From assembly GCA_963789265.1 (NCBI GenBank), contig CAWBKB010000001.1, positions 1,984,001-2,048,000 on the forward strand: a DNA stretch of 64,000 nucleotides. The letters are read 5' to 3'. This document shows positions 33,321-44,482 of the stretch, one piece after another. The translations under genes and the position numbers were made by a program. Below the pieces are notes generated by a model. That model was given only the letters and a program-made list of their open reading frames with translations. It was not told the origin of the DNA and did not search any database. This DNA comes from an uncultured delta proteobacterium (GTDB taxonomy: Bacteria > Desulfobacterota > Desulfomonilia > Desulfomonilales > Desulfomonilaceae). Within the stretch, counting starts at the first letter, position 1. Each line of letters opens with the position of its first letter.

Positions 33321-34732
33321 TCAAATATCAAAGTAGAGAGCGAACTCATAAGGATGAGGTCTCATCCGTATAGGGTTCAACTCGGCATTGGTCTTGTAAT
33401 CAATCCACATATCAATGGCATCCTGCGTGAAGACATCTCCCTTTAGCAAGAATTCCTGATCGGTCTCAAGGGCCTTCAGCGCCTCCCCCAGACTGCCGGG
33501 AGTAGAAGGGACACTCTTCAACTCTTCGGGAGAAAGAGCGTAAATATCTTTGTCCAAAGGCTCACCAGGATCCATCTTGTTTTCGATGCCGTCAAGGGCA
33601 GCCATCAGTACGGCGCTGAAAGCCAAATAGCCGTTGCAGGATGGGTCAGGGGTTCGGTACTCGATGCGTTTAGTCTTGGGAGATGGACTGTACATCGGGA
33701 TACGGCAGCACGCAGATCGGTTTCGTGAAGAATACGCCAGGTTCACAGGCGCTTCGAAGCCGGGCACCAGCCTCTTGTATGAATTTGTCGTGGGGTTGCA
33801 GATCCCGCACAGTGCAGGCGCATGCTTTAATATGCCGCCTATGGCCCACAGGCATTCCTGAGACACTCCGGCATACTTGTCGCCTGCAAACAGGTTCGTT
33901 CCACCTTTCCAGATACTCGTATGTGTGTGCATGCCCGACCCGTTGTCTTCGAACAGGGGCTTGGGCATGAAGGTCACAGTCTTGCAATGGCGTTTTGCCA
34001 CATTCTTGAGGACGTACTTGAACCACATGAGTTGGTCGCCCATCTGCACCAGCGGCGCAAACCTCATGTCAATTTCACCTTGGCCCGCGGTGGCAACCTC
34101 ATGATGTTGGGCCTCGATGCTTATGCCCAGGCTTTCCAAAATCAGCACCATCTCGGTTCGGATGTCCTGTTGAGAATCAGTGGGAGAGACAGGAAAATAC
34201 CCTTCCTTATGTCGAGGCTTATACCCCAGGTTCGGATTCTCATCTCGGCCCGTATTCCACCAGCCTTCAACAGAATCGACTTCGTGGAAGCCGTGATTAG
34301 AGCCATAGCTATAGCGCACGTCGTCAAAAATAAAGAATTCCGCTTCCGGCCCGAAGTAGGCCGTGTCGCCGACCTTTGTATATTTGAGGTACGCTTCGGC
34401 TTTGTAAGCGATGTTGCGCGGGTCTCTCGTGTAACGCTCTTTGGTGACCGGATCCACGATGTTGCAGATCAGTGAAAGAGTCGGATGCTGCATGAATGGA
34501 TCCATCACAGCCGTATTTGGATCGGGAATAACTAACATGTCGGAAGCGTGAATGGGCTGCCATCCCCGTATGGATGACCCGTCAAATCCGAATCCGGATT
34601 CGAATGAGTCCTCCTCAAGCTCGTGCATCGGCACGCTGAAGTGCTGCCACATGCCGGGAAAATCCATAAACTTGAGGTCCAGCATCACTGCTTTGTTCTC
34701 TTTGGCGAACTCGATTACCTGCTTGGCTCCAT
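33321..34732 (-). CDS. glnA: Glutamine synthetase type I; 1-nt deletion near codon 3
   Basis: [47 protein letters not shown] adenylylation Tyr. AAGGAG RBS and ATG at 34732 ([13 protein letters not shown]) sit one base out of frame. Confidence 0.96.
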
Positions 34733-34873
34733 GCCTTACTCCTTTTGCATAAACGTTTTATTTCCCGGTCCTCGCATATCGGGACCTGTGTCGAACTCGC
34801 GGGAATATCTGTGACAATTTCCAGCATCTGTTCCGGACAGAACGTTTTGCCGCCACGCCGACTCCATCATGCT

Positions 34874-35212
34874 TCAGAGTGCGTCCTCGTCCCGTTCGCC
34901 GGTTCTGATACGCACGACGGTTTCAACGGGTATCACAAAAATCTTGCCATCGCCGATACTGCCCGTGCGCGCGGCAGCGATCACCTTCTCAATCACCTGA
35001 TCCACAAGCTCGGTCCGCACGACCATCTCGACTTTTATTTTCGGGAGAAAATCCACGAGGTATTCTGCTCCTCGGTAGATCTCTTTGTGCCCCTTTTGGC
35101 GCCCAAAACCTTTGACTTCTGTGACGGTCATACCCTGAACTCCCAGAGAACTCACAGCTTCCTTCACATCGTCAAGTTTGAAGGGCTTTATAATGACCTC
35201 TATTTTTTTCAT
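34874..35212 (-). CDS. glnK: P-II nitrogen regulator (copy 1)
   Basis: [23 protein letters not shown] (Y51), [10 protein letters not shown]. Confidence 0.93.
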
Positions 35213-35268
35213 CCGTGCCCCCTGTCGAAATTCCCGGCCGGAGCCGGGGACTAGCCTATCGCGGCCTG

Positions 35269-36480
35269 TCAGAAGTTGTATCCGACCTCGCCGTGGGCCG
35301 AGGTATCCACTCCGGCTTCTTCCTGCTCTTCAGTGACTCGCAGGCCCATTGTAGCCTTAACGAGCAAGAGTATAACCAGCGTCACGATAAAACAATAGCC
35401 TATTGTTGCAAGCACTCCGATCAACTGAGTACCGAGTTGCGAAGCATTGCCATAGAACAACCCGTTGGCTCCCGACTCGTTGATGAGTTTCGTCGCGAAG
35501 AGACCGGTCGCGATGACTCCCAAGGCGCCACCTACCCCATGAATGCCGACAACGTCCAATGAATCGTCGTAGCCCAGCCGAGCCTTGACAAGAACGGCCC
35601 CATAACAGACGACCCCTGCTACTCCTCCGATTATCAGCGCAGCCCACGGTTCGACAAATCCGCAAGCGGGCGTTATCGTCCCCAGTCCCGCCACCGCACC
35701 CGAAGCTATCCCCAGAGTGGTAGGCTTCTCTCTCAGAATCCATTCGGCGAAAACCCAAGTAAGTGCGCCCGCAGCCGCGGCTGTATTGGTCGCCAGAAAC
35801 GCGCTGGCCGCCACACCATCCGCGTGAAGCTGGCTGCCGGCATTGAATCCGAACCATCCGAACCAGAGCAATCCAACACCCAAAAGTGTAAGTGTAAGAT
35901 TGTGAGGAATGAAAGCCCTGGTCCCGTATCCTTTACGTTTGCCTACGACTATCGCAGCTACCAGCGCAGCAACACCGCAGTTTAGGTGCACCACAAGTCC
36001 ACCGGCAAAATCAAGACAGCCCAGCTTATACAGCCATCCGCCACCCCAAACCCAGTGGCAAATGGGCGCGTAAACAAATGTTAACCACATTACTGTGAAA
36101 ACGACAAACGAACTGAATTTCATCCTTTCGGCATAAGCCCCGGAAATGAGTGCCGGGGTGATGATTGCGAACATCCCCTGAAAGGTCAGGAAGACGCTGT
36201 GTGGGATAGTCAATCCTTCTTTAACGGCAGACCCCACGCCAAAGCCCATGAAATACTTCAAACTGCCTATAAAACCGCCGATATCCGGCCCGAAAGCCAA
36301 GCTGTACCTGTACACCAGCCAGATTATCGATGCCAACCCCATCAAAAAGTAGCTGTGCATCATGGTTGAAAGAACATTCTTGGAACTCGTCAACCCTCCA
36401 TAGAAGATGGCAAGACCCGGTGTCATGACGAGCACAAGTGCCGAGCATACCATAACAAAGGCCGTATCAGCACCATTCAT
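35269..36480 (-). CDS. amtB: Ammonium transporter (copy 1)
   Basis: [44 protein letters not shown]. Confidence 0.96.
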
Positions 36481-36603
36481 TTTTGTAATCCCTCCCTAAA
36501 GCTGTGTGGTGTGGTCCCGCGTACCGCCGGGCCGGCTGTGGCTTCTGCGTGCTCCCGGAGGTATTCCGGCATCTGCACGCACCTCCACGGTCGTGCCGAT
36601 GGC

Positions 36604-36619
36604 AGCAATCAGCGTGCCA
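36604..36619 (-). promoter_or_regulatory. sigma54 -24/-12 promoter of amt1-PII-glnA
   Basis: TGGCAC-GCTGA-TTGCT, a full consensus match. Confidence 0.85.
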
Positions 36620-42449: not shown

Positions 42450-42465
42450 TGCAATCGGAATGCCA
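42450..42465 (-). promoter_or_regulatory. sigma54 promoter upstream of amt3
   Basis: TGGCAT-TCCGA-TTGCA. Confidence 0.82.
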
Positions 42466-42568
42466 GAACAGGCAAGAGCGGAGTTGTGTGTGCTTATATT
42501 GTTGACATAACGGGAGATATTGTGCACCGGCAACGAGGCACATTCCGGTGCTCATGATTAATTCATCA

Positions 42569-42610
42569 TACGTGAAGGTATCTTCAGCCACAATATATTA
42601 CGTTCGGGTA
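42569..42610. promoter_or_regulatory. Paired TAC-N6-GTA enhancer candidates
   Basis: TACGTGAAGGTA (42569-80) and TACGTTCGGGTA (42599-610; overlaps the activator's stop codon). Confidence 0.75.
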
Positions 42611-44162
42611 CGAAAACGCCGGGCATCGATCCCGAACCTCTGAACGCGTAACCCCATGATTCTTTCGGAAATTCCGAGCGCCCACGCGGCTTTTGCTCTG
42701 TTCCCCCGGCAAGCCTTCAGCGCGTCTACTATCAAGTCTCGTTCTACCCGCTCCAACGTCCCCTCCAGAGTCCCCGAGTGGGCTGTTCCGCTGGCCTCGG
42801 CCGTCTGGAGCGTCGGCGGAAGATGGTGCCCGCGTATTACCTGATCCGAACTCAGGAGAACGGCCCTTTCCAAGCAGTTCTCCAACTCTCGGACGTTTCC
42901 GGGCCAGTGGTAACTCATGAGCATGTCGATGGCAGGCGTTGAAATGCGTCGGATCACCTTGTTATTGGCCTTGCTGTACCTTCTCCACAAAAAAGTCGGC
43001 CAGGAGCGGTATGTCGGTCTTGCGTTCACGCAAGGGCGGAACATGAATTGGAAAAACGTCGAGCCGGTGGTCCAGATCCTGCCGGAATCGTCCTTCCGCG
43101 ATCAACAGCTCCAAGTTCCGATTTGTGGCGGTTATGATTCGGACATTGGTCTTAATGGTCGCTGTGCCGCCCACTCGCTCGAATTCTCTTTCCTGCAATA
43201 CCCTGAGAAACTTGATCTGGGTGGTTGGAGACAAGTCTCCGATTTCGTCGAGAAAGATTGTTCCCCCGTGCGCAAGCTCAAAACGCCCTTTGCCGCGTCG
43301 CTATGGCGCCGGTAAAAGCACCTTTTTCATGCCCGAAAAGCTCGCTTTCCACAACGCTTTCCGGCAGAGCCCCACAGTTGACCTTGATGAAAGGGTTTGC
43401 GGCCCGCAAACTGTTGAAGTGGATCGCGTGAGCCACAAGCTCTTTGCCTGTGCCGCTCTCTCCCCTGATCAGGACCGTGGTATCGCTCCTCGACACTTGA
43501 GCTATCAGGTCGTAAACGGTTTGCATGCCCTTCGAGTTGCCGATGATATTGGAGGGACGAAAGCGCTCCTTGAGCTGATCTTGGAGCCGCAGATTTTCCT
43601 CAAGCAGGCGATGCCGTTCCTCCTGAGCAGATCGCCTGAGACGGACTGCCTGAGCAATCATGGAAGCTATGATGGACAAAAGCCTCACATCTTCTTCGAA
43701 AGCTACCCCGTCCTCGAATAATCGGTCCGCGCTCAATGCCCCGATCACCTCGTTTTCGAGTTTGATGGGAACGCATATAAAGGAGATATCTGCCTTGCTG
43801 AGACCTTTTCGAGCGCCGGTGCGGTCGAGGAATAAAGGTTCTATGGAAATCTGAGGCACCACTGCGGGCCGGCCGGTCTTTATCACCTTCCCCGTAACGC
43901 CTTCTCCGGGCCTGTATTTTCCTCTTTCCATCTGGCTCTCAGACAGGCCGTGAGCGGCTTCAATAAATATTTCCCCGGTCTCCCGGTTTAGGAGAGTCAG
44001 GGTGCCGCGTACCATGCCCATGTTATCGGCCATGGATTCAAGCACAGGCCCTACCACGTCTCTGAGGTCCATGCTGCGATCCAGGCTCTGACTTACTTCA
44101 AAGAGAAGTAAAAGTTCCCGAACCTCTCTTTTAATTCTTGGTTGTTGCTGGCGAGTTGCCAT
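42598..44162 (-). CDS. GAF-AAA+-HTH sigma54 enhancer-binding protein (NifA/VnfA/AnfA family); +1 frameshifts near 43293 and 42979
   Basis: GAF ([15 protein letters not shown]), [52 protein letters not shown]. Confidence 0.9.
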
Positions 44163-44208
44163 TGTTTCTCCGCAATGTCACTTCATGGTTAGGGGTTCAA
44201 GCAAATCT

Positions 44209-44220
44209 TACGAAAATGTA
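44209..44220. promoter_or_regulatory. Single TAC-N6-GTA site upstream of the activator gene (possible autoregulation)
   Basis: TCT-TACGAAAATGTA-GGA extended palindrome, about 47 nt upstream of the ATG. Confidence 0.6.
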
Positions 44221-44482
44221 GGACGCTTGAATTCTATTGTCAAAGGTTGATTTACTTCGACACATAAAAAGTTCTAAGAAACGCTTTGATCTTGACTTGA
44301 GGCAGGCCGCTTTGCTTGATCTCCGGCAGCTCTTGGCGCATCATCGGCGGTCATGGAATTGCGCCGTTGATTGCACGTGTGTCCGCGTTTTGGTCCGCCT
44401 CCTGCGGGAACGCCAAGACGGTGTGCCTCGGACCTTCGTACTTCTTTTTCGCCAATACGGGACGTTAAGAGCCGTAAGGAAG

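Follow-up and report, generated by a model that had tools for sequence, protein, structure and literature searches.

Which protein controls ammonium assimilation in the Desulfomonilaceae bacterium represented by contig CAWBKB010000001.1 is a question raised by a gene cluster in a 64-kb stretch of this contig (the window). Here, a gene for a sigma-54-type activator with GAF, AAA+ and helix-turn-helix (HTH) domains is followed by three pairs of genes for an ammonium transporter (amt) and a P-II protein and by glnA for a type I glutamine synthetase, all on the minus strand. This arrangement, described by an initial annotation made from the letters of the window alone, was confirmed by the open reading frames and by profile matches. 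The source genome (6.06 Mb) is 95.6% complete. Judged from the sequence, the GAF-AAA+-HTH protein is very probably the ammonium-assimilation activator of this organism, which would turn on three sigma-54 promoters under nitrogen shortage.

Sigma-54 promoters and tandem TAC-N6-GTA sites

Strict matches to TGGCA-N6-TTGC were found three times in the window, exactly at the three amt promoters, where the annotation had placed consensus sigma-54 sites. It was also right in placing paired TAC-N6-GTA palindromes upstream of each amt gene and a further site in front of the activator gene. On the other hand, some of its details had to be revised. At amt1 it gave a spacing of 21 bp, but a third, overlapping site at 36720 forms a 31-bp pair with the site at 36751, as at amt2 and amt3. 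Three perfect GTAC-N6-GTAC sequences are present (36719, 38944 and 39268) instead of one, and the genome-wide rate of the motif is one per 10.3 kb (588 in 6.06 Mb), not one per 4 kb. A fourth pair at 39269/39300 had been overlooked. Of the 14 TAC-N6-GTA sites in the window, 11 fall within 33000-44600.

For the whole genome, 494 sigma-54-like sites were scanned for TAC-N6-GTA 70-170 bp upstream. Fifteen carry one such site and only four carry two, namely the three amt promoters and the promoter of nifH. The claim that the arrangement is non-random was thus upheld, since the scan (4/494) excludes chance, but the six sites on which it had been based are not independent. The promoter regions of amt2 and amt3 are copies of each other (alignment score 173 versus a shuffled mean of 65 and a maximum of 86) and the distal site of amt3 at 42599 overlaps the last codons of the activator gene. 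Therefore, evidence of function must come from relatives.

The scan of relatives, which the annotation had proposed, revealed conservation of the motif, with constant spacing, in front of amt and glnA. In 20 loci of the same family or class, 30 amt upstream regions were inspected, two of which were dropped for want of a promoter meeting the criterion. Among the remaining 28 promoters, 27 possess TAC-N6-GTA 70-170 bp upstream and 22 possess two sites, and 43 of the 49 sites lie either 109-116 or 139-147 bp upstream. Control motifs were rare at these 28 promoters (TAC-N5-GTA, TAC-N7-GTA and TAC-N8-GTA none, GTA-N6-TAC two, TGT-N10-ACA one). An orthologue of the activator with at least 72% identity is encoded by 23 of 24 family genomes and is missing in G003, which is 86% complete. 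Nitrogenase was found in 18 of the 24; the other six genomes (82-100% complete) all have the activator, and five of them have kept the motif before amt, while in the sixth the contig stops short of amt. In 29 loci of a wider clade (labelled Planctomycetota, Spirochaetota, Desulfarculus, Syntrophales and others, some of them near-duplicates), 24 of 46 sigma-54-like sites carry TAC-N6-GTA and none carries a control motif. The genes downstream of the motif-bearing sites are mostly amt, glnA-type genes and a gene for a 707-aa protein, which we take to be glutamine synthetase III. As to gene neighbourhood, the 25 closest genome loci comprise 13 with amt, three with a glnA homologue only and nine with neither (six of these shorter than 7 kb); no nif gene was found in any of them.

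For glnA, no promoter of its own was found, and the intergenic region is not conserved. In three relatives (G011, G014 and G020), a sigma-54 site directly precedes P-II-glnA without an intervening amt gene, in G014 together with an enhancer pair. Thus, glnA is probably co-transcribed from the amt1 promoter.

According to the proposed mechanism, activator dimers would bind to the tandem palindromes, 30-31 bp apart and approximately 110-115 and 140-146 bp upstream of the -24 boxes. Nitrogen shortage would lead to assembly of the AAA+ ring and to opening of the three promoters, giving transcription of amt3-P-II, amt2-P-II and amt1-P-II-glnA. The same protein would also occupy the -10 box in the sigma-70 promoter of its own gene and damp its own synthesis, while a separate paralogue beside nifB, of the type of the Desulfovibrio activator DVUA0143, would serve nifH. 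Tentatively, and with somewhat less than even confidence, we suppose that the signal comes from P-II modified by GlnD and acting on the GAF domain. P-II is the leading guess because AnfA of R. palustris, according to the accessible part of PMC12093980, is inhibited by unmodified P-II via its GAF region, an inhibition which a GAF-less form escapes. GlnD, RpoN and P-II proteins bearing Tyr51 are present in the genome. Alternatively, the GAF domain may bind a small molecule, for instance 2-oxoglutarate or glutamine. The predicted complex of a GAF dimer with a P-II trimer reached a score of 0.00, which weighs neither way, and the search of sequencing runs listed no RNA run for the region. In the same genome, the central domain of glutamate synthase (PF04898) was not found, while it is present in 14 of 14 control genomes.

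Competing readings and the nif cluster

Several observations weigh against the proposed role of the activator. The genome encodes approximately 40 sigma-54 activators (43 PF00158 matches), the relatives are non-independent samples, and the control of glnA is deduced from operon position only. The nifH sites also fit TAC-N6-GTA and score highest under a matrix derived from the amt sites. Finally, the activator gene is frameshifted in the window, and contigs of public sequencing runs contradict just one of its two indels.

Regarding nitrogen fixation, the annotation had noted the absence of nitrogenase, which is true of the window but not of the genome. Genes nifH, D, K, E and N are situated on contig C6, where a complete Mo-nitrogenase cluster (422629-434033) comprises nifH, two nifI-type P-II genes, nifD, K, a small gene, nifE, N and B. 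AnfG/VnfG was not found in this 95.6% complete genome. A second GAF activator, of the DVUA0143 type, is located beside nifB and is convergent with the nif cluster; it groups with an activator of plasmid pDV (support 100, FastTree). We took the latter to be DVUA0143, the old locus tag not being shown in the record.

It is conceivable, albeit rather unlikely, that the window activator has a global role in nitrogen regulation, which includes driving or co-driving nifH, the paralogue being a partner or fine-tuner. This would be compatible with its role at amt. As mentioned, nifH is the sole other sigma-54-like site with two TAC-N6-GTA sequences, to which the amt matrix gives scores of 16.8 and 13.8; furthermore, co-acting VnfA paralogues are described in the available text of PMC9542535. 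By contrast, the nifH sites are AT-rich and separated by 24 bp instead of 30-31 bp. Across the nifH regions of 14 relatives, three contain two perfect sites, again with a spacing of 24 bp in every case, four contain one and seven contain none. Moreover, the DVUA0143-type activator adjoins nifB and its predicted sites in Desulfovibrio share the AT-rich core. In Desulfobulbales (loci L079-L093), DVUA0143-type activators are mostly oriented divergently to nifH, with a sigma-54-like promoter of their own and one shared upstream palindrome region. As the probable nifH sites of the paralogue fit the same motif, the assignment of sites to proteins inside this genome rests on linkage.

An appreciably smaller chance has to be given to the idea that a different activator reads the amt enhancers, be it the paralogue next to nifB or an enhancer-binding protein (EBP) with a receiver domain, like GnfM of Geobacter or DVU3220 of D. 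vulgaris, the neighbouring activator gene being no more than linked to them. The many EBPs of the genome leave room for this; Geobacter uses GnfM for glnB and nifH according to the accessible part of PMC2995071, and PMC4641369 lists DVU1231 under DVU3220 as well as under DVU1949. However, the motif tracks the window activator across phyla, sits on its promoter and its 3' end, and precedes amt in five of the six family genomes mentioned above in which nitrogenase was not found. None of 38 matches to NtrC in the genome passed the cut-off, and the best NtrC-like protein lies in an unrelated neighbourhood. The suggestion of the annotation that a one-component GAF sensor replaces NtrBC is sustained in so far as such an activator is the likely regulator and no NtrC passes the cut-off. 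The protein is not AnfA or VnfA, however, and a regulon of this kind had been predicted before.

It is very improbable that the activator gene has decayed to a pseudogene in this strain, with the sites as remnants: the gene carries two frameshifts and the fourth enhancer pair has lost its promoter, but single-base indels likewise break glnA, amt3, nadE, nifB and the nif activator of this genome, and the gene is intact in the orthologous locus L015 (94% identity to the window activator over the first 294 aa). Compared to L015, the window shows single extra bases in the activator gene at about 43294 and 42980 and in amt3 at 41219 and 40666, and glnA is short of one base at 34722, just after the start. 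At 43293, 41217, 40664 and 34722, the window is contradicted by contigs from two public DNA sequencing runs of a single study, each site being covered by one contig of low depth in each run. The indel at 42980 is not among the listed differences and is absent from L015. Most likely, the frameshifts of the window are assembly errors. For this reason, the 520-aa protein P0002 of L015, which is identical to the activator of G001, was used as a stand-in for the window activator; it contains the GAF-AAA+-HTH domains (Pfam) and GAFTGA.

The activator gene, its own site and neighbouring features

The site in front of the activator gene overlaps the -10 box of a putative sigma-70 promoter, and it is likely, from its position, that it acts as a self-repression operator. 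Sigma-70 matches in the region are overall no more frequent than in shuffles. The upstream site is conserved in 19 of the 20 family/class loci, and 12 of these 19 have a TTGACA-like -35 box (at least 5/6) 17 bp before it. At the other end of the gene, the distal enhancer of the first operon (amt3) is built from the last codons and the stop codon of the activator gene. Enhancer and 3' end overlap in 26 of 38 loci, and the offset over the stop codon is the same in 22 of 38. The last residue of the protein is variable (W, M, S, V, A, T, R) but a G is kept in front of the stop codon, so that this constant offset points to selection on the DNA.

Table 1. Predicted features of the activator-amt-glnA locus (window coordinates)
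Feature	Position	Strand	Remark
Activator gene, GAF-AAA+-HTH, sigma-54 type	42598..44162	-	Intact orthologue P0002 of 520 aa, GAFTGA intact
amt3, ammonium transporter, divergent, long N-terminus	40271..41985	-	Intact 570-aa orthologue passes TIGR00836
P-II protein 3, Tyr51 kept	39721..40059	-	
amt2, ammonium transporter	37471..38688	-	TIGR00836 above cut-off
P-II protein 2	37050..37388	-	
amt1, ammonium transporter	35269..36480	-	TIGR00836 above cut-off
P-II protein 1	34874..35212	-	
glnA, type I glutamine synthetase	33321..34732	-	TIGR00653 above cut-off
Sigma-54 promoter of amt3-P-II	42451..42465	-	Conserved in L015
Sigma-54 promoter of amt2-P-II	38827..38841	-	
Sigma-54 promoter of amt1-P-II-glnA	36605..36619	-	
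Enhancer pair for amt3 (42569, 42599), 30 bp apart	42569..42610	.	
Enhancer pair for amt2 (38945, 38975), 30 bp apart	38945..38986	.	
Enhancer cluster for amt1 (36720, 36730, 36751)	36720..36762	.	Same three sites in L015
Fourth enhancer pair, 31 bp apart	39269..39311	.	Own sigma-54 site decayed
Sigma-70-type promoter of activator gene (TTGACA, 17 bp, TACATT)	44215..44243	-	Best scan match, 10/12
TAC-N6-GTA site over activator's -10 box	44209..44220	.	Likely self-repression operator

Concerning the fourth enhancer pair, genome G004 retains the same pair together with a same-sense sigma-54 site at 149/118 bp, and in G015 a similar extra module precedes a putative porin gene inside the amt cluster. 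Because of this retained promoter and the porin modules elsewhere, the fourth pair of the window is probably what remains of the promoter of a deleted gene. In L015, a sigma-54 site in antisense direction lies at canonical distance from the pair; as it is absent in the window and in G004, it was taken as chance. On C1 of the source genome (1916413-1918396, locus L014), one of approximately 12 putative porin paralogues (gene at 1916413-1918096) has a TAC-N6-GTA pair of its own, 29 bp apart and accompanied by an imperfect sigma-54 site. The porin of the G015 amt cluster, behind its own enhancer pair, is a 68% identical homologue. The L014 porin may be a nitrogen-regulated outer-membrane channel. 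A FIST-domain gene on C5 (789503-790904, locus L013) also has a sigma-54-like site and a pair 29 bp apart, but was dropped as a regulon member, pair and promoter being seen in none of eight other homologue loci checked. Two further TAC-N6-GTA sites in the window, at 12781 and 12815, are 34 bp apart and had no linked sigma-54 site in the scans.

Gene content around the cluster is variable in part. Within the genus, only some genomes (G001, G004 and G005) have amt3, which is missing from the loci fetched for G002 and G006. After glnA and on the same strand (30771-33185), the frameshift-split nadE gene for a glutamine-dependent NAD synthetase and a class I glutamine amidotransferase-like gene follow, as in many relatives; they are possibly the tail of the same operon. 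A conserved 458-aa protein without Pfam or NCBIfam match is encoded at 45773-47149, and 48527-50196 contains an RsbR/S/T-like stress-signalling cluster (PAS-STAS, STAS, kinase), judged by eye from the translations. Rfam detected no riboswitch in 33000-45000, the sole match being a sub-threshold Acido-Lenti-1-like one to palindromic repeats at 39493-39660 and 44440-44556. Run contigs accumulate at these repeats, suggesting that they are multi-copy in the genome.

Family position and comparison with known systems

The closest named homologues of the activator belong to Desulfomonilaceae and are annotated as NifA. P0002 exceeds the cut-off of the NifA model TIGR01817 (568.8 versus 528.85 bits), which explains why proteins of this type are called NifA in databases. 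Its identity values are 54% to VnfA1 of A. vinelandii (P0400; AAA+ domain 67%), 53% to P0376, labelled as iron-iron regulator by UniRef, 46% to DVU1949-like proteins, 45% to DVUA0143 and 38-45% to three NifA proteins. The DVU1949-like proteins were identified indirectly, by a helix motif from the supplement of PMC4641369 and by synteny with ior genes. In supplementary file 2 of that paper, the label DVU1949 stands on a DNA-binding-domain row that matches the activator of plasmid pDV, so that the labels appear to be shifted; the row used instead points to activators encoded behind iorA-like genes, which is the position given for DVU1949 in the paper.

Phylogenetic analyses were performed with a 135-row FastTree tree that was reduced by hand to 40 rows for IQ-TREE; AnfA of A. 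vinelandii and AnfA of R. capsulatus, which were not recognised among the matches of the homologue searches, were absent from the trees. With 40 rows, the window clade, the VnfA/AnfA-like proteins and the DVU1949/Desulfobacterales branch formed one clade of 31 rows (99/92), apart from NifA and DVUA0143. The same clade was recovered from 28 rows without NtrC under a mixture model (100/99), its inner order being unsettled. Within it, the VnfA/AnfA-like rows form a branch of their own that excludes the window protein (100/100), and the grouping of the window clade with the DVU1949/Desulfobacterales branch (86/91 under LG+G4) was not settled under the mixture model. FastTree had placed VnfA/AnfA beside the window clade, which IQ-TREE did not uphold. 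By the approximately unbiased (AU) test, a grouping of VnfA/AnfA with NifA (p=0.0006) and of the window clade with the DVUA0143 clade (p=0.0005) was rejected, while that of the window clade with VnfA/AnfA was not (p=0.26); these p-values are weakened by the fact that the groups were named after the trees had been seen, and the root relies on one long outgroup.

The window protein does not belong to NtrC, NifA or AnfA/VnfA. NtrC is ruled out by the GAF domain in place of a receiver and by a score of 353.5 bits against the TIGR01818 cut-off of 558.6. NifA is ruled out by the tree position, by TGT-N10-ACA occurring at one of 28 promoters and by the presence of the protein without nitrogenase. AnfA/VnfA is ruled out too, as the N-terminal cysteine motif is lacking and no alternative nitrogenase is served. 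The window protein has no cysteine before the GAF domain, and two such residues were found in only one of 120 close homologues, inside an N-terminal extension; VnfA-like proteins mostly possess a C-x-GEC-type motif. Plasmid searches listed no AnfA/VnfA or anf/vnf loci among their matches. The AnfA/VnfA lineage proposed by the annotation was thus correct as to a common clade with VnfA/AnfA-like proteins and a greater proximity to VnfA1 than to NifA, while the AnfA/VnfA type itself is contradicted by the missing cysteine motif and by the failure to find AnfG/VnfG in the genome. The trees are compatible with its idea of an ancestral role, without giving the direction.

A widespread, unnamed family of one-component GAF activators, automatically annotated as NifA, might substitute for NtrC in ammonium assimilation across many anaerobic phyla and might be the source of VnfA and AnfA. 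Its gene would be a self-contained switch, with an operator on its own -10 box and with the first enhancer of the target operon contained in its own stop codon. These would then stem from this family rather than from NifA, having kept TAC-N6-GTA and P-II control and having added a cysteine metal sensor. We regard this broader scenario as a serious possibility that falls a little short of an even chance. If the tree holds, the AnfA/VnfA site, which is unlike that of NifA, and the response of AnfA to P-II would both be inherited from an ammonium-assimilation regulator. For anaerobes without NtrBC, the locus offers a concrete nitrogen-control circuit with predicted sites precise enough for a test. 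It also illustrates that annotation as NifA is no proof of nitrogen fixation, as the family passes the NifA model and occurs where no nitrogenase was found.

Enterobacterial NtrB/NtrC employs sigma-54 promoters with tandem enhancers at glnK-amtB and glnA and represses a sigma-70 promoter. The window regulon resembles it in its targets, sigma-54 promoters, tandem enhancers and the predicted repression of a sigma-70 promoter by the activator itself. It differs by an activator without receiver domain or kinase and by another site, NtrC being a distant outgroup (HTH 25% identical). From the DVUA0143-type nif activator and NifA it is separated by the tree, including the rejected grouping with the DVUA0143 clade. 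With VnfA1 of A. vinelandii and AnfA of R. capsulatus it shares the domain order, a similar recognition helix and tandem sites of the TAC-N6-GTA or GTAC-N6-GTAC type. According to the accessible parts of the sources, AnfA binds TAC-N6-GTA and carries a conserved N-terminal cysteine motif (PMC7294313), and VnfA1 binds GT(T/A)C-N6-GTAC (PMC9542535). By contrast, the targets in the window are amt, P-II and glnA instead of vnf or anf, and the protein is not nested in the VnfA/AnfA-like branch. Among solved structures, the best match to the GAF domain alone was Nlh1 of Aquifex aeolicus (4G3K/4G3W, E 1e-28), for which a regulation of nitrogen assimilation rather than fixation was speculated in the available text of PMC9866876.

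The closest parallel is the regulon of DVU1949 in Desulfovibrio vulgaris and other Desulfovibrionales. In PMC4641369 (Kazakov et al. 2015), this one-component EBP was predicted to control amt, P-II, glutamine synthetase III and itself, while DVUA0143 was predicted to control nif, both with sites containing ACA-N4-TGT cores. When perfect, these cores fit TAC-N6-GTA. A one-component ammonium regulon had thus been predicted before, and the annotation's own reservation about earlier descriptions partly applies. Literature searches, which were thin in subscription journals and did not extend to RegPrecise, yielded neither a paper on the window clade in Desulfomonilia nor a tree in which VnfA/AnfA derive from this clade, nor an experiment testing DVU1949; PMC10102598 does not mention DVU1949 or DVUA0143, and PMC11018506 does not contain VnfA, AnfA or NifA as whole words. 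Both regulons have in common a one-component GAF EBP, the targets amt (DVU1231), P-II (DVU1232) and glutamine synthetase III (DVU1258) in Desulfovibrio, autoregulation and a TAC-N6-GTA-like palindrome core, and the activators belong to the same strongly supported clade. They differ in sequence (46% identity), recognition helix and sub-branch. Moreover, the DVU1949 sites are AT-rich (TTACA-N4-TGTAA type), whereas those of the window mostly have CCTAC/CGTAC flanks and a free spacer, and the DVU1949 gene lies behind ior genes while the window gene stands at the head of the amt cluster. In both cases, the regulon is no more than a prediction. DVU3392 is presumably glnA and DVU1821-23 presumably glutamate synthase. 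That the basic idea is not new, having already been predicted in Desulfovibrio, limits its weight; the part worth pursuing is the promoter architecture and the shared ancestry with VnfA/AnfA. In summary, the window regulon would work like the predicted DVU1949 regulon and, in its targets, like that of NtrC, while its site is of the AnfA/VnfA type.

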